Below, piece after piece: positions 2,562 through 62,484 of a stretch of 64,000 nucleotides of DNA (its first letter is position 1; each line of letters starts with the position of its first letter). Source of the stretch: Bacteroidales bacterium (lineage in GTDB: Bacteria; Bacteroidota; Bacteroidia; Bacteroidales; JAUNSR01); contig JAUNSR010000007.1 in NCBI GenBank assembly GCA_030539115.1, positions 14,929 to 78,928 of the forward strand, written 5' to 3'. The position numbers and the translations under genes are program-made. The notes beneath the pieces were generated by a model that was not told where the DNA came from, made no database searches, and saw nothing but the letters and a program-made list of their open reading frames with translations.

Positions 2562-3405
2562 AAAGATAACATTCTATATTAAGTTTAAGATTAAAGTCAA
2601 TCTTTAGAAATTATGTTGCCTAATAAATTAATTAAGCGACAAAATTCATTTAATTTGAGATATCAAAGAGGATAAATCATGACGCATTTTTATCTTAGTG
2701 TTAAAGATTTAATTATATGGAGATAAATTTATATCGATATAATAAATATAAATTCCCTATTTTCTTAAATAAATACTTATAAGATTAATTTGTAACACTT
2801 GATTTTAATCAATGTTTTTTTTATATGATTTGAGAACCTTTGATAATAACTTTTTTGTTTTATTAATAATGAAATTGAAAAATAGAATTAATTGTAAAAT
2901 AATATAAATAATTGATAATTAGTAAATAACAGTGTGCGATTTAAAGTGGTTTTTATAATTTCTACAACTTCGTTTAGGTTATAATTGCTTTCTTTTTATA
3001 TTGCGAATGAGATGTATGGCATATTACAATAGAGGCATTCAATCATATCGGGCTCATTTTTAAGTTTATTAATTTGTTTTATTAATATGACATCATATGT
3101 ATCTATTAAATAAACGTTATTATAGATATTATCATTATATTTCTTGTTAGTAAAGGACAAACATGAATATAGGCAACACTACCGACAATCGGATGATATG
3201 AAGAGATTATTCGTTTGCAGTGATGGGAAGATATTGGTCACCTATTGCAAAATGAATCGTAGAATCAGACGATATTGAAAGTATAAGTGAACTGAATTAA
3301 ACATACGAGCTAGCCAAGAAGCAATAAAAAATTTTAATTGCGTTTTAGTGAATTCAAATAAAAGCATTTGAGCTTCTGAGCAAAATCGCAACGTGATATA
3401 GCATG

Positions 3406-7285: not shown

Positions 7286-7667
7286 ATTGATTAGCGATTA
7301 TTGGAATAGGATTATTTTCTAATTTCCTTTTTATCTTTAGAAATAATAATCCCATTAGAATTGGATTTTGCTATTTCTCTGTTTAAGATATATGTGTTAG
7401 CTCCACTTTCAAAATGTTTTTCTTCACTGAGTAAATTTCAATTGTGGAAGTTTCATGATATAAGCAGATGCTCAAACCAATACTCTCATCGGTCACGAAT
7501 TATTTGATAGCGTAGCAAATCGTTGCAACATGTAGAAATCAAGACTGTCGTCAAATCATTAGCAAATTTTCAAGGCAAATTCATAAGTCGCTTATTTTTT
7601 TAATAATTCGTTCAATAGGTAAAATAAAAAATGAGTTATATAAAGCTATGTAACTCAAAACTATTAG

Positions 7668-7751
7668 TACGAAGGAGGAGATTCGAACTCCCACACCGCA
7701 ACCGGCACTACCCCCTCAAAGTAGCATGTCTACCTATTCCATCACCTTCGC
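7668..7751 (-). tRNA. tRNA-Leu (anticodon GAG), class II with long variable arm
   Basis: Reverse complement is GCGAAGGTGATGGAATAGGTAGACATGCTACTTTGAGGGGGTAGTGCCGGTTGCGGTGTGGGAGTTCGAATCTCCTCCTTCGTA. Anticodon stem is CTACT/GGTAG and the loop is TTGAGGG. Predicted G1-U72 wobble. No encoded CCA. Confidence 0.85.
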
Positions 7752-7765
7752 AAATTAAATAAAAG

Positions 7766-7849
7766 TACCCAAAACAGGGCTCGAACCTGCACATCCTTTC
7801 GGACACTAGTACCTGAAACTAGCGCGTCTACCTATTTCGCCACTTGGGC
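7766..7849 (-). tRNA. tRNA-Leu (anticodon CAG), class II
   Basis: Reverse complement is GCCCAAGTGGCGAAATAGGTAGACGCGCTAGTTTCAGGTACTAGTGTCCGAAAGGATGTGCAGGTTCGAGCCCTGTTTTGGGTA. Anticodon stem is CTAGT/ACTAG and the loop is TTCAGGT. It also has G-U pairs in the acceptor stem. Confidence 0.85.
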
Positions 7850-7895: not shown

Positions 7896-8306
7896 TAATT
7901 AATTGAAAGACCATTATTTAACAAAGGGAATAGGTAAGTGATTTATAAAAGTCATACAAAAACTCTTTTTGCAGGCTTTCAAAATGATATATCTATCGAT
8001 TTGTTTTACAAATATAAATCAAGTTTTACTATAAAAGCAAGAATATTCTTCTTTTTATAGACAATACTTATGAGATAAATACCTGAAGTATTTAAAAGTT
8101 AAATGCGAATAGGCTTATTTAAATAAAAATTTTTAGTATATATTTTATTTTAATTGTACCATAAATTTATGCATTTTCTCAAATGCAGATTATTATCTCT
8201 TTTTTTGTTATTTATTGTGGTTGGTTTATAAAGAAATAGTCAATTTCCAACCTATTTCCAAGCCATTTGTTAAGTTAATATAAGCTGAATGATAAATTAT
8301 AAACAA

Positions 8307-8402
8307 ATAAAACCGTCATAGCTTATCCAATAACATATGCCATATAAAAGGTATTTAAATGGCGCATTTGCATCTCGGTGTTAAAAATAGATTATATAGA
8401 TG
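8307..8402 (+). repeat. AFSR repeat copy A (diverged); its 3' ATG is the start codon of the phosphatase gene
   Basis: ATAAAACCGTCATAG...AAAAGGTATTTAAATGGCGCATTTGCATCTCGGTGTTAAAAATAGATTATATAG-ATG aligns to the family consensus. Confidence 0.7.
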
Positions 8403-9701
8403 AAAAGCAGGTTTATAACAATAATAACTTTAATTCTCCTTCTTATGTTGTCGGCATGCAATGAAAAAGATTTAAGAATGAATGGAACTGATATGCCTTA
8501 TGTTTATAAAGAACAGAAATATACACCGGCACCTGAAAGTTTCGTGCCTTTTTATATAAACTTTGTTTGCAGACATGGTTCCCGTTATCCAATAGAATCC
8601 AAATATATTGATGAATTGATTGAGGTTTTATCAGATGCTGAAAAAAAATCAATGATAACTCTTACAGGATCTCAACTAAAGACTTCATTAGAGCATATAA
8701 TTAATAAATTTAATAATAAATGGGGCCTTTTAAGTCATGTAGGTGTTGCCGAGATACAAGGAATTGCTTCAAGAATGATTAAAAACTATATTCATGTTTT
8801 TGATGAAGCTATATACGTGCAAAGCGATTCCGCTGAAAGATGTGTAAAAACTATGGATGCGTTTATTGATGTATTTAAAAATAAAAAAGACAGTATTAAA
8901 ATCAACACTGAAATTGTAAAGAAAGACAATGTAGTATTGAATTTTTTTGATGTTAATTTAGAATATCTGAAATTTAAGAAACATGGAACATGGAAAAACA
9001 TATATAATAGTTATTCAGACTCGATTTTGGGAAATACTCGGTTATTATATAAGTTCTTTCTTCCAGAGTATGTAAGTACCATAAACAAAGCCCCTCAGTT
9101 TCTTCATGCCCTTTTTAAAATAAATGCAATACTACCTAACACAGATGAAAAGATTTCACTAAAAGACTTCTTTACAGGTGAAGAGGAATATTTATTATGG
9201 AATACTCAGAATGTTAAGGAATATATGGAAAAAGGACCTTGGCCGGGAGAGTATGGTCTTCAGACAGACATTTCTTTCCCGTTATTAGAAGATTTTCTGA
9301 TTACTTCATATAATTCCATTGTTGATGGTGGAGTCAGTGCAGACTTTAGATTTGCGCATGCTGAAACAATCATACCATTTGCAGCTTTTCTTGATATTAA
9401 CATTGCTTCTGCCAAAACTATGGATATTAATAATGTAAGCAATGTTTGGAAAGATTTTGAGATAGCTCCTATGGCTGCAAATATTATGTGGATTTTTTAT
9501 AGCAATAATGATGGAGAGATAATTGTAAAAATGCTGCTTAATGAAAAAGAGGTTAGCTTTCCTGTTAATTCAAATATAACGCCTTATGCTCATTGGGAGG
9601 ATATTCAAAAATATTATCAAAACAAACTTGATGCTCTTTCTGTAATTCCATCATTATCTACTGAGGCTAAACTTAAATATTTTAAAGAATATAAAAAATA
9701 A
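8400..9701 (+). CDS. histidine acid phosphatase, MINPP-like (putative phytase), lipoprotein
   Basis: Signal and lipobox LLLMLSAC. RHGSRYP catalytic motif (FVCRHGSRYP) and HAE (FAHAETIIP) in place of HD, as in multiple-inositol-polyphosphate phosphatases. Confidence 0.75.
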   Translation: MKSRFITIITLILLLMLSACNEKDLRMNGTDMPYVYKEQKYTPAPESFVPFYINFVCRHGSRYPIESKYIDELIEVLSDAEKKSMITLTGSQLKTSLEHIINKFNNKWGLLSHVGVAEIQGIASRMIKNYIHVFDEAIYVQSDSAERCVKTMDAFIDVFKNKKDSIKINTEIVKKDNVVLNFFDVNLEYLKFKKHGTWKNIYNSYSDSILGNTRLLYKFFLPEYVSTINKAPQFLHALFKINAILPNTDEKISLKDFFTGEEEYLLWNTQNVKEYMEKGPWPGEYGLQTDISFPLLEDFLITSYNSIVDGGVSADFRFAHAETIIPFAAFLDINIASAKTMDINNVSNVWKDFEIAPMAANIMWIFYSNNDGEIIVKMLLNEKEVSFPVNSNITPYAHWEDIQKYYQNKLDALSVIPSLSTEAKLKYFKEYKK

Positions 9702-14675: not shown

Positions 14676-14753
14676 CTATATCTTAAATAAAGGTATATAA
14701 ATGGCGCATTTGTACCTTAGAGGTAACGGTTATAAAAAAATTATATATAAATG
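14652..14753 (+). repeat. AFSR repeat copy B in the trkH-trkA spacer; its 3' ATG is the trkA start codon
   Basis: 14685-14753 (AAATAAAGGTATATAAATGGCGCATTTGTACCTTAGAGGTAACGGTTATAAAAAAATTATATATAA-ATG) is near-identical to copy F. The 5' part overlaps the trkH stop and is only weakly alignable. Confidence 0.75.
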
Positions 14754-15440: not shown

Positions 15441-15490
15441 AAAAAACATAACTTATCCAAAGTTGAAACACCCCTCAAAAGTTACATTAA

Positions 15491-20485: not shown

Positions 20486-20654
20486 ATAATCTATTTTTAA
20501 TGCTTTTGTACATATTCAATATTTAAACCCTCCTGCCTTTTTACCATCATCACTTAGGTATTGAGCTATTTCTGTTGTAAAAAACTTATTCAGCAATTAA
20601 CTAACAAATTATAAATATATGCAATTATTGATAGTCTCATAACTAAAATTTATA

Positions 20655-37359: not shown

Positions 37360-37565
37360 AAAGTGTTAGATTTAATAATAAATTCAATTTTTACCATTTA
37401 TATATGCAATAAAAAAGTAAAAATTGAATTTAGTGGTATTTGGATTATTTTTTTTTCAAATGTAAAAAATAATAACTGTAACTCAGAAAATTTATTTACT
37501 CATTCAGATTAAAACTATTATTTAGAAATTCATAATCGAAGTAATCATTTAAATTAGAGAAATAC

Positions 37566-47491: not shown

Positions 47492-47595
47492 TTTAAAACG
47501 CCATAACTCACTAAAAGTTGAGATACCCAACAAAAGGTATATTAATGGCGCATTTGTACCTTAGTGTAAAAAATTAAATTATATATAAATTAAAA
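47492..47595 (+). repeat. AFSR repeat copy C (both flanking ATG-type heptamers read TTAAAA)
   Basis: TTTAAAA-CGCCATAACTCACTAAAAGTTGAGATACCCAACAAAAGGTATATTAATGGCGCATTTGTACCTTAGTG..ATTATATATAA-ATTAAAA. It ends 43 nt upstream of the ATG at 47638. Confidence 0.8.
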
Positions 47596-49642: not shown

Positions 49643-49801
49643 AATTGTAATTTTTTACAAACTTAACCAGAAAAGTTAATTATAAATAGATTTTAGTGTT
49701 TAAATAAAAACGCAATAACTCTCTTAAAGTTGCAATAGTTAAGTAAAAGTAAATTTATGACCCATTTAAGCTTTTGCTAAATTAATAGTTGGACATTATT
49801 A

Positions 49802-50121
49802 TTCATTTGTATATTATTTATTTTCCTAACCATAACTTCTAAGGTGCAAATGCGCCATTTATATACCTTTTGTAAGGTATCTCACCTTTAAGTGAGTTAT
49901 GGCGATTTCATTTGTATATTATTTATTTTCCTAACCATAACTTCTAAGGTACAAATGCGCCATTTATATACCTTTTGTAAGGTATCTCAACTTTAGGTGA
50001 TTTATGGCGATTTCATTTGTATATTATTTATTTTTCTAACCATAACTTCTAAGGTACAAATGCGCCATTTATATACCTTTTGTAAGGTAACTCAACTTTA
50101 GGTGATTTATGGCGATTTCAA
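49802..50121 (-). repeat. AFSR tandem array D: three units of exactly 105 bp
   Basis: TTCATTTGTATATTATTTATTTT starts at 49802, 49907 and 50012. Units are more than 90% identical. The array lies 160 bp upstream of the ASCH gene. Confidence 0.95.
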
Positions 50122-50171
50122 TATTAATTTCATTTAAAAGTTGTTTTTACAAATTTATCGCTGCTATTAAT

Positions 50172-50774: not shown

Positions 50775-50834
50775 TTATAACCGTGTTTATAATAACTCAA
50801 ACTATATATAATAACATAATGATTTTTTATTTGG

Positions 50835-50920
50835 TTTCATTTGTATATATTTTAATTTTTAACACCGAGGTACAATTACACCATTTATATACCTTTTGTT
50901 GGGTATCTTGGCGGTTTTAT
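50835..50920 (-). repeat. AFSR repeat copy E (degenerate, hairpin 1 deleted)
   Basis: In element orientation it reads ATAAAACCGCCAAGATACCCAACAAAAGGTATATAAATGGTGTAATTGTACCTCGGTGTTAAAAATTAAAATATATACAA-ATGAAAC. Confidence 0.65.
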
Positions 50921-52365: not shown

Positions 52366-52541
52366 AAAGAAATAGACAAAAATAATCTCTTTTAGTTTAT
52401 TTCTTGATAATCATTACAATATAATATCAAAGAAAGGAATAAATTTCTTAGTAAAATGATTTTTATGCAAATTCTTATTTATTTGTTTATTTTATGACAA
52501 TAAACCTTCATTATTTAATTTTGATTGTCATTATTATAATA

Positions 52542-52676
52542 TGTCTTAAGTAACATAAATGTGTAACTTAAGTATGTTTGCATACTATCTTAAGTAACAT
52601 ATTAAACTATCTTAAGTAATTTAAACATGTTATTTAAGTCGTACGTTAGTGTATCTTAAGTTGTTTAAATAAATTG
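52542..52676. repeat. iteron-like array: six CTTAAG-centred boxes at exact 22-bp phasing
   Basis: CTTAAG at 52545, 52567, 52589, 52611 and 52655, with TTTAAG at 52633. Conserved core (C)TATCTTAAGTAA with variable 10-12 nt between boxes. Confidence 0.9.
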
Positions 52677-53129
52677 ACAAGTATAATTTGAAAATTAATG
52701 ATTAAAAATTAATGTTGACAATTCAGATGATAAGAGCATAATTAAACAACCGAGTAGAAGAGTGTTTTGTTTAATAAATAAGTTGTTAAGAGATGAATAT
52801 ATTTTACAGCAATTGATTTTCGTACAAAATAACAAAGATTTTATTTACTGCAATTCGATTTATTTTGATAACATAATATCTCATATACGAAATATTGGAC
52901 AACCATTCGATGCAAATAATCAGTTTATGACTATTAATCCCAAAGCAAGAATGGATGGAGTGATTTTTGTTAAAGAGTCGGAGTGATTTTGTTGGAATAA
53001 AATAGGAATATGTATAGATGTTTTTTTGATAAATTTCAATATTCGTTAAATTACGAACACTTCTTTATTTAATTATTTTAAGTCAGTATATTTGTGAGTG
53101 GAAAATGTAAGTCGTTTTTTATTCTCTTA

Positions 53130-53137
53130 TAGATTTG
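53130..53137 (+). promoter_or_regulatory. candidate -7 box (TAGATTTG) of the arsR operon
   Basis: TAnnTTTG match 78 nt upstream of the ATG at 53215. Confidence 0.4.
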
Positions 53138-53155
53138 TATACTAAAAAGAGGTAT

Positions 53156-53177
53156 AAATGATTTGCAAATATCATTT
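53156..53177. promoter_or_regulatory. palindromic candidate ArsR operator
   Basis: AAATGAT-TTGCAAAT-ATCATTT, a 7-bp inverted repeat around a TTGCAA centre, just downstream of the -7 box. Confidence 0.5.
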
Positions 53178-53214
53178 TGTGAATAATTAGAATATGTATT
53201 AATAAAAAGATTAT

Positions 53215-53535
53215 ATGTCCAAAGAATATACTATCCGACAAGAGCAAATAGCCCGTTTTGCAAAGGCTTTAGGTCATCCGGCACGTATTGCAATATTGGA
53301 TTTTTTACTTAATCAGGAAACTTGCTATTTTGGAGATATTCATGATGAACTTCCCATATCAAAAGCTACCGTTTCCCAACATTTGAAGGAGTTGAAAGAG
53401 GCGGGTCTTATTCAAGGAGAGATAGAAACGCCCAAAGTAAAATATTGTATTAATAAGGAAAATTTAAAGCTGGCAAATACTTTGTTTGGAGAGCTTTTGG
53501 GAAAAGACTTACATAAAAAAGAAAATTGCTGTTAG
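53215..53535 (+). CDS. arsR: ArsR/SmtB-family metalloregulator
   Basis: [18 protein letters not shown]...[19 protein letters not shown], with a C-terminal CC pair. Confidence 0.85.
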
Positions 53536-54848: not shown

Positions 54849-54947
54849 ATGGAAATGCCATAACTCAGCTAAAATTGAGATACACGGCAAAAGGTATATA
54901 AATGGCACATTTATACCGTGATGCTAATAATAAATTATATATAAATG
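54849..54947 (+). repeat. AFSR repeat copy G; its 3' ATG is the start codon of the PatB-like gene
   Basis: ATGGAAATGCCATAA-CTCAGCTAAAATTGAG-ATACACGGCAAAAGGTATATAAATGGCACATTTATACCGTGATGCTAATAATAAATTATATATAA-ATG. Confidence 0.85.
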
Positions 54948-56120
54948 GAGAACTACGATTTTAATAAATATATCGATAGAAAGAACAGTGATTGTGTAAA
55001 GTATGATGCATTGAAACAATTCTATGGAAGAGATGATTTGATTCCTCTTTGGGTTGCTGATATGGACTTTGAAACTCCTGACTTTATCATTGATGCCATC
55101 AAAAAAAGGCTTGAACATCCTATTTTAGGTTATCTTTCAATCCAGGATGGTTACTATCAAAGCATAATTGACTGGTGTGCAAAAATTCATAATTGGGATA
55201 TTAAAAAAGAATGGATTTCATACATTCCCGGCATTGTAAAGGGGGTAGGACTTGTATTGCAGGCTTTTACAAAGCCCGGTGACAAGGTTATTATTCAGCC
55301 TCCGGTTTATCATCCTTTCAGAATAGTTCCTGAATTAAATAAAAGAGAGATTGTTTGGAACAATCTTATATTTGAGAATGGGGAATACAAAATGGATTTT
55401 AAACAACTTGAATCTATAATCACTCCGGATTGTAAAGTTTTGATTCTTTGCAATCCTCATAATCCTGCCGGTATTGTTTGGGATAAAGAAACTCTTATTC
55501 AGCTCGCCAAGATTTGCAAAAAGCATAATATACTTGTCATATCTGACGAGATACATTCTGAAATGGTTCATAAAGGTTTTAAACATACCTCTTTTGCAAC
55601 ATCTTGTAAAGAGGCAGCTGAGAATAGCGTTACATTTATGGCACCATCAAAGACATTTAATATACCGGGGATTGTTAGTTCCTATTCCATTGTTCCCTCT
55701 GATACAATTAGAGAGAAGTTTTATTCTTTTCTTGAGGCTAATGAGTTTGGAGATTCAACGATTTTTGCAGTGACAGCGACAATTGCAGCATATGAAAAGG
55801 GTGAAGCTTGGCGTACTCAAATGATGGAATATGTTGAAGAGAACATCTCTTTTGTAAACGATTATATTTCAAATAATATTAAAGAAATAAAATGTTTTAT
55901 ACCTCAGGCATCCTATTTAATGTGGCTTGATTGCAGAGGATTAAATTTAAATCATGATGAACTTATAGACTTGTTTGTCGATAAAGCTCATTTGGCTTTA
56001 AATGATGGAACTATGTTTGGTCCAGGTGGAGAAGACTTTATGAGAATGAATTTAGGAGCTCCAAGAGTAATTTTAGAAAAAGCTTTAAAACAATTAAAAG
56101 ATGCAGTTTCAGGATTATAA
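54945..56120 (+). CDS. PatB/MalY-type cystathionine beta-lyase (class I/II aminotransferase)
   Basis: DRKNSDCVKYD...LIPLWVADMDFETP N-terminal signature and the SPSKTFNIPG PLP-lysine context. Confidence 0.85.
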   Translation: MENYDFNKYIDRKNSDCVKYDALKQFYGRDDLIPLWVADMDFETPDFIIDAIKKRLEHPILGYLSIQDGYYQSIIDWCAKIHNWDIKKEWISYIPGIVKGVGLVLQAFTKPGDKVIIQPPVYHPFRIVPELNKREIVWNNLIFENGEYKMDFKQLESIITPDCKVLILCNPHNPAGIVWDKETLIQLAKICKKHNILVISDEIHSEMVHKGFKHTSFATSCKEAAENSVTFMAPSKTFNIPGIVSSYSIVPSDTIREKFYSFLEANEFGDSTIFAVTATIAAYEKGEAWRTQMMEYVEENISFVNDYISNNIKEIKCFIPQASYLMWLDCRGLNLNHDELIDLFVDKAHLALNDGTMFGPGGEDFMRMNLGAPRVILEKALKQLKDAVSGL

Positions 56121-59418: not shown

Positions 59419-60339
59419 TTATAAACTGGTTGGAACAAGATAGTTCTTTTTATATTCAATCGGTGAGCATCCGGTAATTTCATGAAAAACTCTTGTAAAA
59501 TGATACCTATTGGCAAAGCCGGTCTTTTCTGTAATCATTTCTATACTATAATTTGTATGCAAAAGAAAAAGACAAGCTTTTTTTATCTTTTTATTTTTAA
59601 TAAATTTCTGAATTGTTATTCCCGTTTCCTCTTTAAATAGCCTTGCAAAGGCATTTGTAGCCATATATGTCATCTGAGCTAATTCTTCATTTGAAATATT
59701 CCTGTCAAGATTGTTTTCAATGAAACTTATAGCTTTTCCCACTCTCTCATCTTTGTAAGAATTATTCCAAATGTTTGAATCCATTTTAAAAAACAATTCT
59801 AATATTAAGGATTGAACAGCCATAAACAAGGAAAAATCTATTTTCTCAGCTTGTTTTGATAGGCTTTTGCAGATAAAATCGACTTTTGTTTTAAGATAAT
59901 CTTCAAGTTCAAAGACAAAAATCTGAGGCTTTATATTATCATAAGGATAACCAACAGTGAAATGAATAAAAAGATGCTCGATAAAATCATCTTTTTTAAA
60001 ATTATTTGTTAGTTCGGAAGAGAGGTCAGAGATTCTTCCACCATTTAAAACATAAGATGACTTAGGTATAGAATGATTGAAAAGATGAGATGAATAGCTT
60101 GTATTTGGTGCTATTAAATAAACATGATTTGGAAGCATCTCATATTCAATATTATCATATTTTATAAATCCACCTTTTTTCGAATTATAATAAACTCTCC
60201 AAAAAGGGAAATCAAGCTGTGGATATTCCCAGTTTTTTAACCACCAATATCTACAACAAAGAAGTTGAAGATTAAACTTAGGAAAATATTGAACTAATTC
60301 AGAAGGATCTCCTTTATATGTCTCTTTATTATCTTTCAC
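59419..60339 (-). CDS. AraC-family transcriptional regulator
   Basis: C-terminal HTH (..MITEKTGFANRYHFTRVFHEITGCSPIEYKK). Divergent from fucI. Confidence 0.85.
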   Translation of the reverse strand: MKDNKETYKGDPSELVQYFPKFNLQLLCCRYWWLKNWEYPQLDFPFWRVYYNSKKGGFIKYDNIEYEMLPNHVYLIAPNTSYSSHLFNHSIPKSSYVLNGGRISDLSSELTNNFKKDDFIEHLFIHFTVGYPYDNIKPQIFVFELEDYLKTKVDFICKSLSKQAEKIDFSLFMAVQSLILELFFKMDSNIWNNSYKDERVGKAISFIENNLDRNISNEELAQMTYMATNAFARLFKEETGITIQKFIKNKKIKKACLFLLHTNYSIEMITEKTGFANRYHFTRVFHEITGCSPIEYKKNYLVPTSL

Positions 60340-60361
60340 AATCTAATGTTTGTTTTAGATA

Positions 60362-60369
60362 CAAATATA
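60362..60369 (-). promoter_or_regulatory. candidate -7 box (TATATTTG on the minus strand) of the AraC gene
   Basis: The + strand reads CAAATATA, 23 nt upstream of the ATG at 60339. Confidence 0.4.
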
Positions 60370-60404
60370 TATGTTTTGGATATTTATATTGCATTATCTC
60401 TCAG

Positions 60405-60412
60405 TAACTTTG
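60405..60412 (+). promoter_or_regulatory. candidate -7 box (TAACTTTG) for fucI
   Basis: The only TAnnTTTG match I found upstream of fucI. It would place both AFSR units inside a 5' leader of about 290 nt. Confidence 0.3.
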
Positions 60413-60520
60413 TCTCAGAAATAAAAAACACAGAATAATATATAGATATATTTTTATTCAAAATAGTTAATTGTCATTTTTAGTGACATAAAATGATTTT
60501 AAAATAAAAACAATATATAA

Positions 60521-60711
60521 CTGCCATAGCTCACCTAAAGGTGAAATACCAAATAAAAGGTATATAAATGGCGCATTTGTACCTTAATGAAAATAATATA
60601 AAAATACACAAATGAAACCGCCATAACTCACCTAAAGGTGAAATACCAAATAAAAGGTATATAAATGGCGCATTTGTACCTTAATGAAAATAATATAAAA
60701 ATACACAAATG
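60521..60711 (+). repeat. AFSR tandem array H: two units of 97 bp; the second unit ends in the fucI start codon
   Basis: The ATGs at 60612 and 60709 are 97 bp apart. The units are identical except at their 5' ends (CTGCCATAGC versus CCGCCATAAC). Confidence 0.95.
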
Positions 60712-62484
60712 AAAAAACATCCTAAAATTGGTATTCGCCCTACAATAGATGGTCGTCAGGGTGCTCTTCAAGTAAGAGAATCTCTTGAAGAACAAACAAT
60801 GAATATGGCTAAATCTGCAGCTAAACTATTCACAGATAATTTAAAATATTCAGATGGTTCTCCAGTTGAAGTCGTAATTTCAGATACAACGATAGGTCGA
60901 GTTGGGGAAGCTGCAGCTTGTGCAGAAAAGTTTAGAAAAGAGGGAGTTGACATAACCTTAACTGTTACTCCTTGCTGGTGTTATGGCTCTGAAACAATGG
61001 ATATGGATAAATTGACAATAAAAGGAGTTTGGGGATTTAATGGAACCGAACGTCCCGGCGCTGTTTATCTTGCTGCTGTTCTTGCGGGGCATGCACAAAA
61101 AGGTCTTCCTGCTTTCGGTATTTATGGACATGATGTTCAAAATGCAGACGATACTTCTATTCCTAATGATGTGCAAGAGAAACTTCTTCGTTTTGGTAGA
61201 GCCGCCATTGCTGTTGCCCAAATGAGAGGACAATCTTATCTTCAGATTGGCTCTATTTGTATGGGGATTGCCGGTTCTATAATAAATCCGGAATTTATTG
61301 AAGAATATCTTGGTATGAGAGTTGAATCGGTTGATGAAGTTGAAATAATTCGTCGCATGACTGAAGGCATATATGATAAAGCCGAATTTGAAAAAGCATT
61401 GGCTTGGACAAAAGAAAAATGTAAAGAAGGTGTCGATAAGAATCCTATAGAATTGCAAAAATCTCCGGAACAAAAAGAGAAAAATTGGGAGTTTGTTGTA
61501 AAGATGATGATAATTATCAAAGATCTTATGCATGGAAATCCTGATCTTCCAAAGGGTTGTGAAGAGGAAAAAATAGGACATAATGCTATTGCTGCAGGTT
61601 TTCAAGGACAAAGACAATGGACAGACTTTTATCCCAATGCTGATTATCCCGAAGCTCTTTTAAACACTTCTTTTGATTGGAATGGAGCAAGAGAACCTTT
61701 TATTTTAGCAACAGAAAATGATACTCTTAATGGATTGGGTATGTTGTTTATGAAGCTACTTACCAATCGTGCTCAGATGTTTGCCGATGTTCGTACTTAT
61801 TGGAGTGGTGATGCTGTAAAGAAAGCAACAGGATATGAAATTGAGGGAAAAGCTAAAGAAGCTGACGGCTTTATTCACTTGATTAATTCAGGAGCTTGTT
61901 GTTTGGATGCTTGTGGAGAAGTAAAAGATGAAAATGGTAATGGTGTGATTAAACCATGGTATGAAATGACCAAGGATGATCAAAATAAAGTAATGGATTC
62001 TGTTGAATGGTGTGCTGCTGATTGTGGCTATTTTAGAGGTGCAGGTTATTCTTCAAGGTTTATTACAAGAGCAGAAATGCCGGCTACTATGATTCGTTTA
62101 AATCTTGTAAAAGGACTTGGCCCAGTTCTACAAATTGCTGAAGGATGGACCATTAATCTTCCGGATAATGTTTCTGATATTCTTTGGAAAAGAACTGATT
62201 ATACTTGGCCTTGTACTTGGTTCGCTCCTCGCATAACAGGAAAAGGCGCTTTTAAATCAGCTTATGATATGATGAATAATTGGGGCGCAAACCATGGCGC
62301 AATTAGTTACGGTCATATAGGAGCTGATTTAATTACTCTTTGTTCTATTCTTCGAATTCCCGTATGTATGCATAATATTGAAGAAAAAGATATTTTCCGT
62401 CCTGCTTCATGGAATGCTTTTGGAATGGATAAAGAGGGACAGGACTATCGTGCATGCAAAAATTATGGACCTTTATATAAATGA
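60709..62484 (+). CDS. fucI: L-fucose isomerase
   Basis: [35 protein letters not shown]... is collinear with E. coli FucI through the C-terminal ..[13 protein letters not shown]. Confidence 0.95.

Follow-up and report, generated by a model that had tools for sequence, protein, structure and literature searches.

A dispersed repeat abutting start codons in a Bacteroidales genome, probably inserted at ATGAAA with duplication of the target

The window analyzed here is a 64,000-nt stretch of a Bacteroidales genome (GenBank assembly GCA_030539115.1, contig JAUNSR010000007.1), and our subject is a short dispersed repeat that lies, among other places, in front of the fucose isomerase gene fucI. Positions 60519-60714 form a tandem repeat (period 97, 2.0 copies, 97% matches) that reaches the start of fucI, and an AraC-family regulator gene (59419-60339, minus strand) is divergent from fucI across an intergenic region at 60340-60520. 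The repeat unit of 97-105 nt is present as 11 copies at eight loci of the window, including one two-unit and one three-unit tandem array, the latter on the minus strand at 49802-50120 with a period of 105. A 30-mer core, AAAGGTATATAAATGGCGCATTTGTACCTT, gave nine matches at no more than three mismatches, against none in 100 shuffles, and 11 matches at no more than four. The core matches lie at 8347 (+), 14689 (+), 47533 (+), in the three-unit array (-), at 50867 (-), 52299 (+) and 54890 (+), and in the fucI pair. The stretch common to the aligned units runs from about (A)TGAAAT-CGCCAT through ...TATA(C/T)AAATGAAA. An earlier sequence-only reading of this DNA held that the unit always ends on an ATG; ten of the 11 window units do so, with the 3' end ...ACAA/ATAA-ATG, whereas the unit at 47533 ends on ATT.

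At four loci the ATG at the 3' boundary of the repeat is, judged by homology, the authentic start of a gene. The ATGs at 8400, 14751, 54945 and 60709 open reading frames (ORFs) of 433, 229, 391 and 591 aa, which matched His_Phos_2, TrkA_N/TrkA_C, Aminotran_1_2 and three fucose isomerase domains of Pfam, respectively. Position 1 of the TrkA_N profile aligns at residue 3 of the ORF at 14751, and the homologues measure 591 aa for FucI (100% coverage), 229-230 aa for TrkA and 389-396 aa for PatB. Because homologue length, coverage and Pfam coordinates agree, the starts of fucI, trkA, the histidine phosphatase gene and the PatB-type lyase gene were accepted, and the claim that the repeat boundary coincides with the starts of four unrelated genes was borne out. 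Its extension to gene-start placement in general applies to only half of the window loci: at the other four (47533, the three-unit array, 50867 and 52299), the terminal ATG or ATT opens 8-12 codons and the next gene follows 48-800 nt further on. When array-terminal copies were counted in all genomes (the window, four other genomes and the locus L066, described below), the terminal ATG was the start of a long ORF in 26 of 32; 22 of these ORFs run for at least 114 aa, and four are cut by a contig end after 65-325 aa. At a base composition of 32% G+C, about 7.6% of codons are estimated to be stops and a random ATG would open at least 100 codons with P of about 4e-4, so the fusions are not explained by chance. 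Every gene-linked copy is co-oriented with its gene. The downstream genes are functionally mixed, comprising fucI, trkA, the phosphatase gene, patB, many genes for secreted proteins, and genes with lipA-, lysA- and FAD oxidoreductase-like N-termini (those outside the window judged by eye from their N-termini only).

The family is not limited to this genome. The sequences available were the 64 kb of the source genome and 8-kb pieces of other genomes. An exact-pattern scan for the core, with one genome per species, located it in 20 stretches (L001-L020) from four other Bacteroidales metagenome-assembled genomes (MAGs; JAVWBH01, JAVVPN01, JAVVQG01 and JBOFCW01), in which looser matching gave 26 copies. 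Three of these are internal array units; of the other 23, 21 have a terminal ATG that begins either a long ORF (114-1093 aa) or an ORF leaving the contig. Many of these ORFs have signal-peptide-like N-termini, and others are of cytoplasmic type, e.g., MKYLLIGGVAGG. One further copy occurs in L066, and tandem arrays are also found in L002, L011 and L019; at L002:5822-6045, in MAG contig JAVVPN010000008.1, a run of N interrupts the array. The proposal that a dispersed repeat provides the region upstream of start codons therefore holds for four window genes and generalizes to four other genomes. A 19-mer scan of the JGI metagenome collection gave 25 matches, all chance ones inside unrelated coding sequence, and the element is absent there; viral contigs and plasmids gave no match either. 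The element is confined to a narrow clade, and no paper on it, or on any start-codon repeat of Bacteroidales, turned up in our searches.

A direct repeat of 5-6 bp, ATGAA(A), flanks the unit on both sides, directly 5' of CGCCAT and at the gene start. The 5' junction is identical to the 3' ATGAA at 5/5 positions in 20 of 30 aligned units, internal array units included. In three copies, the same non-consensus variant stands on both flanks: ATGAGA/ATGAGA in L017, where the gene begins MR; ATGGA/ATGGA in the window patB copy, where the gene begins ME; and TTAAAA/TTAAAA at window positions 47493-47498/47590-47595, where there is no start codon. Moreover, the 5' junction of the patB copy with its flank, gattaaaATGGAAA, resembles the native patB start, aataaaATGGAAAGA, of the element-free relative L067, and PatB begins ME in both. 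Elsewhere the 5' flank has drifted to ATA, AAG, TTG or ATGTAA, as expected of a copy freed from selection. Since the shared flank variants are what a target-site duplication would leave, the gene itself is the most likely source of the start codon and codon 2, which insertion would have duplicated, and the element would supply the leader only. The earlier claim that the repeat runs through the start codon into codon 2 is thus probably mistaken, as the flanking ATGAA(A) would not be element sequence.

Codon 2 is AAA in 23 of the 26 element-linked genes; among window genes without the element, Lys is found at codon 2 in 5 of 33, four times as AAG. This bias points to a target preference for ATGAAA. 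It would also be seen if the unit itself ended in ATG-AAA, thereby bringing the start codon and codon 2 and replacing the 5' end of the gene by short-homology recombination or by site-specific integration of a circular unit with ATGAAA(T) as the crossover core. We consider this alternative unlikely. It agrees with the presence of ATGAAA at unit junctions inside the tandem arrays and with the ATG AAA of the window fucI, which is ATG AAG or AAC in relatives, and the identical core of 6-7 bp has the size of the overlap region of tyrosine recombinases. However, an element-borne end would need a parallel mutation in each of the three copies with shared flank variants, patB keeps ME like its relatives, L017 keeps MR, and no recombinase gene was recognized among the 30 window ORFs scanned.

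Comparison of leaders among orthologues gave a mixed answer, in which trkA speaks for insertion and fucI offers no clean empty site. The 75-nt trkH-trkA spacer of the window is almost wholly a 5'-truncated unit; relatives at 60% identity carry 24-34 nt of unrelated sequence before the same start (MKFII/MKLII), and for this reason the site looks like an insertion. In fucI relatives (87-89% protein identity), fucI follows fucU or fucP and is preceded by only the last 30-38 nt of the repeat family, e.g., GACTTTctagcAAAATTAAATTATATACAAATGAAG, which are 5'-truncated remnants. There the gene belongs to an operon, fucK-fucP-(fucU)-fucI-fucA, and an AraC gene lies farther upstream of it, so the window fucI has lost its upstream operon partners. 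At patB, the element is present in the window and absent from L067, and the L066 leader is only weakly tail-like. The DUF2400 gene overlaps patB by 20 nt in the window (56101-56120) and in L067/L068 (L067:2666-2685); in L066 (GCA_036650655.1) an 85-nt patB-DUF2400 spacer (L066:3180-3264) contains a diverged unit (nhmmer E = 1.4e-9). In L066 the ATG of this unit is the start called for DUF2400, and the protein has a remodelled N-terminus, with different first residues (MQFQDYKEV / MEFQELKTL / MEKNEIKEL). Leaders of window genes without the element are unrelated to its tail, and tblastn detected no orthologues common to the window and loci L001-L020. Among the homologues collected, FucI P0007, P0010 and P0011 and PatB P0129 and P0130 are called 50-150 aa longer than the others; the FucI extensions could be miscalled starts reading through upstream sequence. 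P0129 and P0130 were rejected as close relatives, with internal duplications in their contigs and about 62% identity.

The relatives of the window proteins are only 60-89% identical, and in orthologous genes of L013 and L015 the 4-fold degenerate sites are 45% identical, i.e., near saturation, against 37 of 38 identical positions in the element core. The family consensus is therefore being maintained; selection, conversion or a recent independent insertion at the same gene could each account for this. Decay is nevertheless evident in individual copies: P2 or the 5' half has been lost while the tail was kept at trkA, at 50867, and in L015, L016 and L018, and this retention fits selection on the part that has turned gene leader.

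Considering these observations, we propose, with moderate confidence, that the element is a lineage-specific, non-autonomous, non-coding interspersed repeat that inserts at ATGAAA with a 5-6 bp target duplication and brings an A/T-rich leader. It would always enter its target, the hexamer ATGAAA or a close variant, in the same orientation, presumably by an enzyme-driven mechanism. ATGAAA is a common "start codon plus Lys" sequence; insertions within genes would be lethal, and insertion exactly at a gene start would be tolerated. Of the two ATGAA(A) copies, the 3' one would remain with the gene, with the element setting its own Shine-Dalgarno-free, A/T-rich leader of about 30 nt in front as the translation-initiation region, and transcription entering from promoters or operons upstream would cross the element. 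The duplicated start on the 5' side would stay behind the native leader and open a four-codon MKSP mini-ORF that closes at a conserved TAA/TAG inside the element. As the target would be regenerated at the 3' end of the element, re-insertion or unequal exchange could yield head-to-tail arrays. Deletions would then erode copies from the 5' side, selection preserving the part that acts as gene leader.

Several observations weigh against this proposal. In most copies both ends show the consensus ATGAAA, which is equally compatible with ATGAAA as a part of the unit, so the duplication argument rests on the three variant copies and the patB comparison. About nine copies have a longer 5' direct repeat, comprising 15-28 nt of tail, which may have arisen by variable-length duplication or by recombination between tails; because such a repeat continues at L019:3378-3420 into a recognizable partial upstream unit, we read them as probable remnants of eroded upstream tandem units. 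ATGAAA occurs in the window at five gene starts, at 24 sites in other intergenic DNA and at 98 sites inside genes. The excess of copies at gene starts consequently requires extra target specificity or faster loss of neutral copies, that is, specificity, selection, or both. The 30 window ORFs scanned include no recognizable gene for a transposase, integrase, recombinase, HUH/Y1 or RAYT enzyme. Terminal inverted repeats are also missing: TCGCCATAAC... and ...TTATATACAA, the two ends, match at no more than about 5/11 positions when one is reverse-complemented (by eye from alignments). The relatives used for the empty sites are distant (60-65% protein identity), and short-read contigs break inside the repeat, so strain-level presence/absence polymorphism is not visible. 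In contigs L021 and L054-L059, which come from other samples and encode the identical FucI or TrkA, the sequence sets in 24-41 nt before the start codon; breaks of this kind hide copy number and upstream context. Samples SRR31749868 and SRR24915786 are among those that contain this organism.

In order, a unit consists of the junction ATGAAA(T/C), the core, a variable 10-25 nt and the A/T-rich tail ...AAATTATATACAA abutting ATGAAA. The core reads CGCCAT (P1 5' strand), AA, CTCACC-TAAA-GKTGAG (P2 hairpin), ATACC (P3 5' strand), a variable loop, GGTAT (P3 3' strand), ATAA, ATGGCG (P1 3' strand) and CATTTG(T)ACCTT. The earlier description of the leader as A/T-rich suits the tail, the last 30 nt or so of the unit; the description as unstructured does not suit the 5' two-thirds of the unit, which are predicted to form a three-way junction. 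The unit also contains a segment complementary to the start. Single-sequence folding gave P1 and P3 a probability of about 0.9 in most copies, and RNAalifold recovered both independently, with a covariation term of about 0. These two helices are 93-95% paired across copies, with marginal shuffle support for P1-P3, and their non-Watson-Crick cells comprise 13 G-U against one A-C, which favors the sense strand as the one that folds. Immediately after P1 comes CATTTG(T)A, a segment able to pair with (T)ACAAATG, i.e., the end of the tail plus the start codon. This helix is 93.5% paired, with seven double-change cells and none of 500 shuffles scoring as high, and shows the best covariation among the helices tested; examples are CATCTG/CAGATG in L019 and CATTTATA/TATAAATG in the window patB copy and L019:6510. 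The covariation is suggestive of pairing and not proof, because the sequences are related and the shuffle control overstates the support.

These structural features raise the question of whether regulation in cis at the RNA level is the main role of the element, be it as a translational switch, a thermosensor or a leader that binds a ligand or protein. The three-way junction would then decide whether CAUUUG(U)A masks the start codon, and dispersal would have wired unrelated genes into one post-transcriptional regulon, with mobility being secondary. The stably predicted P1 and P3, the wobble bias to the sense strand, the start-region helix and a core far more conserved than neutral sites would all be in keeping with this explanation. 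We nevertheless judge it improbable: the RNAalifold covariation is close to nil, relatedness inflates the shuffle support, the downstream genes have no common function, and the start-pairing helix is weak, with 6-8 A-U-rich pairs closing a loop of 35-45 nt. In addition, truncated copies without P1 and P2 still serve genes (trkA, L015 and L016), and the complementarity could serve DNA-level recognition of the element end instead. Rfam matched only two tRNAs in the whole window at the gathering score, and one unit searched at E up to 10 gave chance-level matches, the best being GP20-a with 19.8 bits against 47.2 required (E = 0.25).

If CAUUUG(U)A pairs with (U)ACAAAUG at the start, the pairing could serve to tune initiation, or the fold could be one that a mobilizing enzyme recognizes. 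By extension, there is a small chance that the core is a functional RNA or single-stranded DNA device, either a mobile translational switch over dozens of unrelated genes or a guide-like element that recognizes its own 3' end and the target ATG through base pairing and would thereby steer insertion to start codons. The guide-like version would be comparable to the guide/cleavage-site pairing of IS200/IS605 or to the bridge RNAs of IS110, and the covariation of CATTTG(T)A with the ...CAAATG end fits either version. Where the 5' ATG is intact, a mini-ORF encodes MKSP, MKPP or MEMP, in some copies MKSPSLT, with its stop (TAA/TAG) in or just after P1. A "ribosome relay", in which translation of the mini-ORF melts P1, the palindrome described below forms and the start is freed, was not supported by constrained folding: with the 5' 33 alignment columns forced single-stranded, start-codon pairing rose from 0.38 to 0.52 and the probability of an unpaired AUG fell from 0.42 to 0.31. 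Coupling of an internal ATGGCG ORF to the gene by an ATGA overlap was also rejected, as its distance to the gene ATG (29-40 nt or, counted otherwise, 41-52 nt) falls in all three phases.

A 29-nt segment, AAGGTA(TA)TAAATG-GCG-CATTTG-TACCTT, is the most conserved part of the unit. It is an imperfect palindrome, 93.6% paired across copies and able to form a DNA hairpin, and it keeps its pairing through compensatory changes in the diverged copies at window 2636, window 49702 and L019:6510. The element could be of the repetitive extragenic palindrome (REP)/RAYT type or derived from IS200/IS605, i.e., a single-stranded DNA element with the AAGGTA..TACCTT hairpin bound by a trans-acting HUH (Y1) protein and with ATGAAA as the cleavage or target sequence, without true duplication. 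Single-orientation insertion, a target regenerated at the 3' end and the lack of terminal inverted repeats are consistent with this origin, and the internal segment complementary to the element end is reminiscent of IS608, in which a guide pairs with the cleavage site. We regard it as quite improbable, however, since the shared flank variants argue for duplication, the scan of 30 window ORFs gave no Y1 or RAYT gene, and REPs lie mostly 3' of genes and alternate in orientation within bacterial interspersed mosaic elements (BIMEs), neither of which the copies do. Nor is the palindrome ever the favored RNA fold; as the RNA ground state it was rejected, its probability being about 0 in unconstrained folds. 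Reading the tail or core as a dif/Xer site or as integron attC R'/R'' boxes was likewise rejected by eye, the spacing varying by 1 nt between genomes and the arms being asymmetric. Finally, an ancestral, vertically inherited leader or a chance likeness of A/T-rich leaders, not mobile at all, could account for the family tail before fucI in the relatives but is very improbable, as unrelated genes share about 100 nt of near-identical sequence, tandem arrays exist, and filled and empty sites (relatives without the element at trkA, patB and DUF2400, other window leaders unrelated) contradict it.

Returning to the preferred account, a mobile repeat that brings a leader, the composition of that leader can be compared with what is known of the group. 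Bacteroidia initiate translation without Shine-Dalgarno pairing. Positions -6 and -11 to -13 of the tail are A, and -3 is C, not A. For Flavobacterium johnsoniae, the positions at which A favors initiation are -3, -6, -12 and -13 (PMC6847099). The suggestion that the repeat offers an A-rich leader suited to Bacteroidota is thus sustained at -6, -12 and -13, where the leader fits these determinants, and not at -3. At 18 of 31 loci the copy is preceded, at no more than 70 nt, by the end of an ORF on the same strand; most copies are intercistronic and therefore need no promoter of their own. No copy matched the Bacteroidetes-type promoter TTTG-N17-23-TAnnTTTG, and no sigma-70-type or terminator-like site was found within the fucI units; a promoter inside the element was rejected on these grounds.

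The coordinates of the window copies are collected in Table 1. The degenerate unit at 49702 is oriented opposite to the three-unit array that it adjoins, which suggests insertion into or beside an older copy. A weak partial match to the P2-P3 part lies at 15447-15490 (+; nhmmer E = 0.028), just 3' of the trkA stop and between convergent genes, and this fragment recurs in contigs from other samples. Two further leaders resemble internally deleted element remnants, both below the nhmmer reporting threshold: that of the GH35 beta-galactosidase gene (TATATAAATGGtaaaaattgaattt..., about 37360-37410, minus) and that of a BNR-repeat gene (...gcattaaaaatagattatATG, about 20486-20530, minus). Two adjacent tRNA-Leu genes (anticodons GAG and CAG) occupy 7667-7751 and 7765-7849 on the minus strand, about 450 nt upstream of the copy at 8303. 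The 835-nt non-coding, A/T-rich stretch at 52380-53215 separates an element copy from an HTH_20/ArsR-like gene and contains six TCTTAAGT motifs phased at 22 nt (about 52544-52665), which look like an iteron or operator array.

Table 1. Copies of the repeat, their parts and adjoining gene starts in the window (HMM, hidden Markov model; P1-P3, predicted helices).
Feature	Position	Strand	Remarks
Degenerate 5' copy of the flanking direct repeat, start of fucI array	60515..60521	+	ATATAAC against consensus ATGAAAT
fucI array unit 1	60522..60611	+	P1 5' strand 60522-60527; P2 hairpin 60530-60545
fucI array unit 1, P3 and closing of P1	P3 60546-60550 with 60559-60563; P1 3' strand 60568-60573	+	
fucI array unit 1, start-complementary segment CATTTGTA	60574-60581	+	Followed by A/T-rich tail to 60611
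Inter-unit junction, fucI array	60612..60626	+	ATGAAACCGCCATAA, four-codon mini-ORF MKPP-stop, begins at internal ATGAAA copy
fucI array unit 2	60619..60708	+	Anatomy of unit 1 offset by 97 nt; tail 60683-60708 is the fucI leader
fucI	60709..62484	+	ATGAAA at 60709-60714, 3' copy of the flanking direct repeat
Single diverged unit	8303..8399	+	ATG at 8400 begins His_Phos_2 lipoprotein-like gene 8400-9701
5'-truncated unit in trkH-trkA spacer	14688..14750	+	HMM positions 47-110; ATG at 14751 begins trkA
Unit with TTAAAA flanks instead of ATGAAA (47493-47498, 47590-47595)	47493..47595	+	No gene start; DUF1848 gene begins 47638
Three tandem units, period 105	49790..50130	-	Terminal ATG opens 9 codons only; next gene begins 49642
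Degenerate unit, opposite orientation, tail to tail with three-unit array	49702..49779	+	nhmmer E = 1.8e-4
Unit without P2 hairpin	50834..50912	-	ATG opens 12 codons; MobA-like gene begins about 80 nt downstream
Full unit with 5' mini-ORF ATGAAATCGCCATAA	52255..52370	+	Terminal ATG opens 10 codons, then 835 nt non-coding
Unit upstream of patB	54849..54949	+	Flanks ATGGA at 54849-54853 and 54945-54949; 5' copy retains an ancestral-looking leader with ATGGAAA; 3' copy is the patB start
Old diverged unit, no gene attached	2636..2724	+	nhmmer E = 1.5e-3; compensatory changes in AAGGTA/TACCTT palindrome

What makes a sufficient initiation region in Bacteroidia is still being worked out, and the element amounts to a natural experiment, in that six genomes have one leader of about 30 nt before unrelated genes, at least 26 in all, and the leader evidently supports their expression. 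Its tail is a candidate minimal portable initiation region for Bacteroidota genetic tools. Furthermore, the repeat breaks short-read assemblies at gene starts and could mislead gene callers on start codons and tiny upstream ORFs.

Several families of small bacterial repeats invite comparison. Like miniature inverted-repeat transposable elements of the Correia/NEMIS kind and the ERIC, RUP and BOX repeats, the element is small, non-autonomous and multicopy, is flanked by a short direct repeat, probably of the target, and may be co-transcribed with its neighbors; in contrast to them, it lacks terminal inverted repeats, keeps a strict single orientation to genes, has a 6-nt asymmetric target that includes the start codon, and forms tandem arrays. 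With REP/BIME-RAYT and IS200/IS605-derived elements it shares an imperfect conserved palindrome, the lack of terminal inverted repeats and oriented insertion beside a specific short sequence, but those elements make no target duplication, whereas three copies here have shared non-consensus flanks, and REPs are found mostly 3' of genes. The Rickettsia palindromic elements are likewise repeats tolerated where coding sequence is affected, their insertion preserving gene function; they lie in frame inside ORFs and are translated, while the present insertion would touch the ORF only in its first two codons, which it duplicates.

The closest known analogue is the mycobacterial interspersed repetitive unit (MIRU), described as a mobile element that inserts at start codons with limited effect on downstream expression (Supply et al., 1997, summarized in PMC12548453). 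Both are short non-coding units, from tens of nucleotides to about 100, that occur singly or as head-to-tail arrays. Their sites are spacers of co-directional genes, where they are co-oriented with the downstream gene, and both are found at start codons. The MIRU, however, is translationally coupled to the downstream gene through an internal ORF, the end of which overlaps the start of that gene (-4 spacing). The present element has no coupled ORF, its only conserved ORF being the four-codon 5' mini-ORF; it would instead duplicate the start and bring a Shine-Dalgarno-free, A/T-rich leader. It also belongs to another phylum and, going by description, is without sequence similarity to the MIRU. 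The pattern is clean, the host range is narrow, and the conceptual precedent lies in the MIRU. The element would thus represent a second, independent answer to the problem that a selfish repeat faces at a gene start, namely, how to settle there without killing the gene: the MIRU answers with a coupled ORF, and this element with a duplicated start codon and a leader of its own, so that the two would have their behavior in common but not the device.

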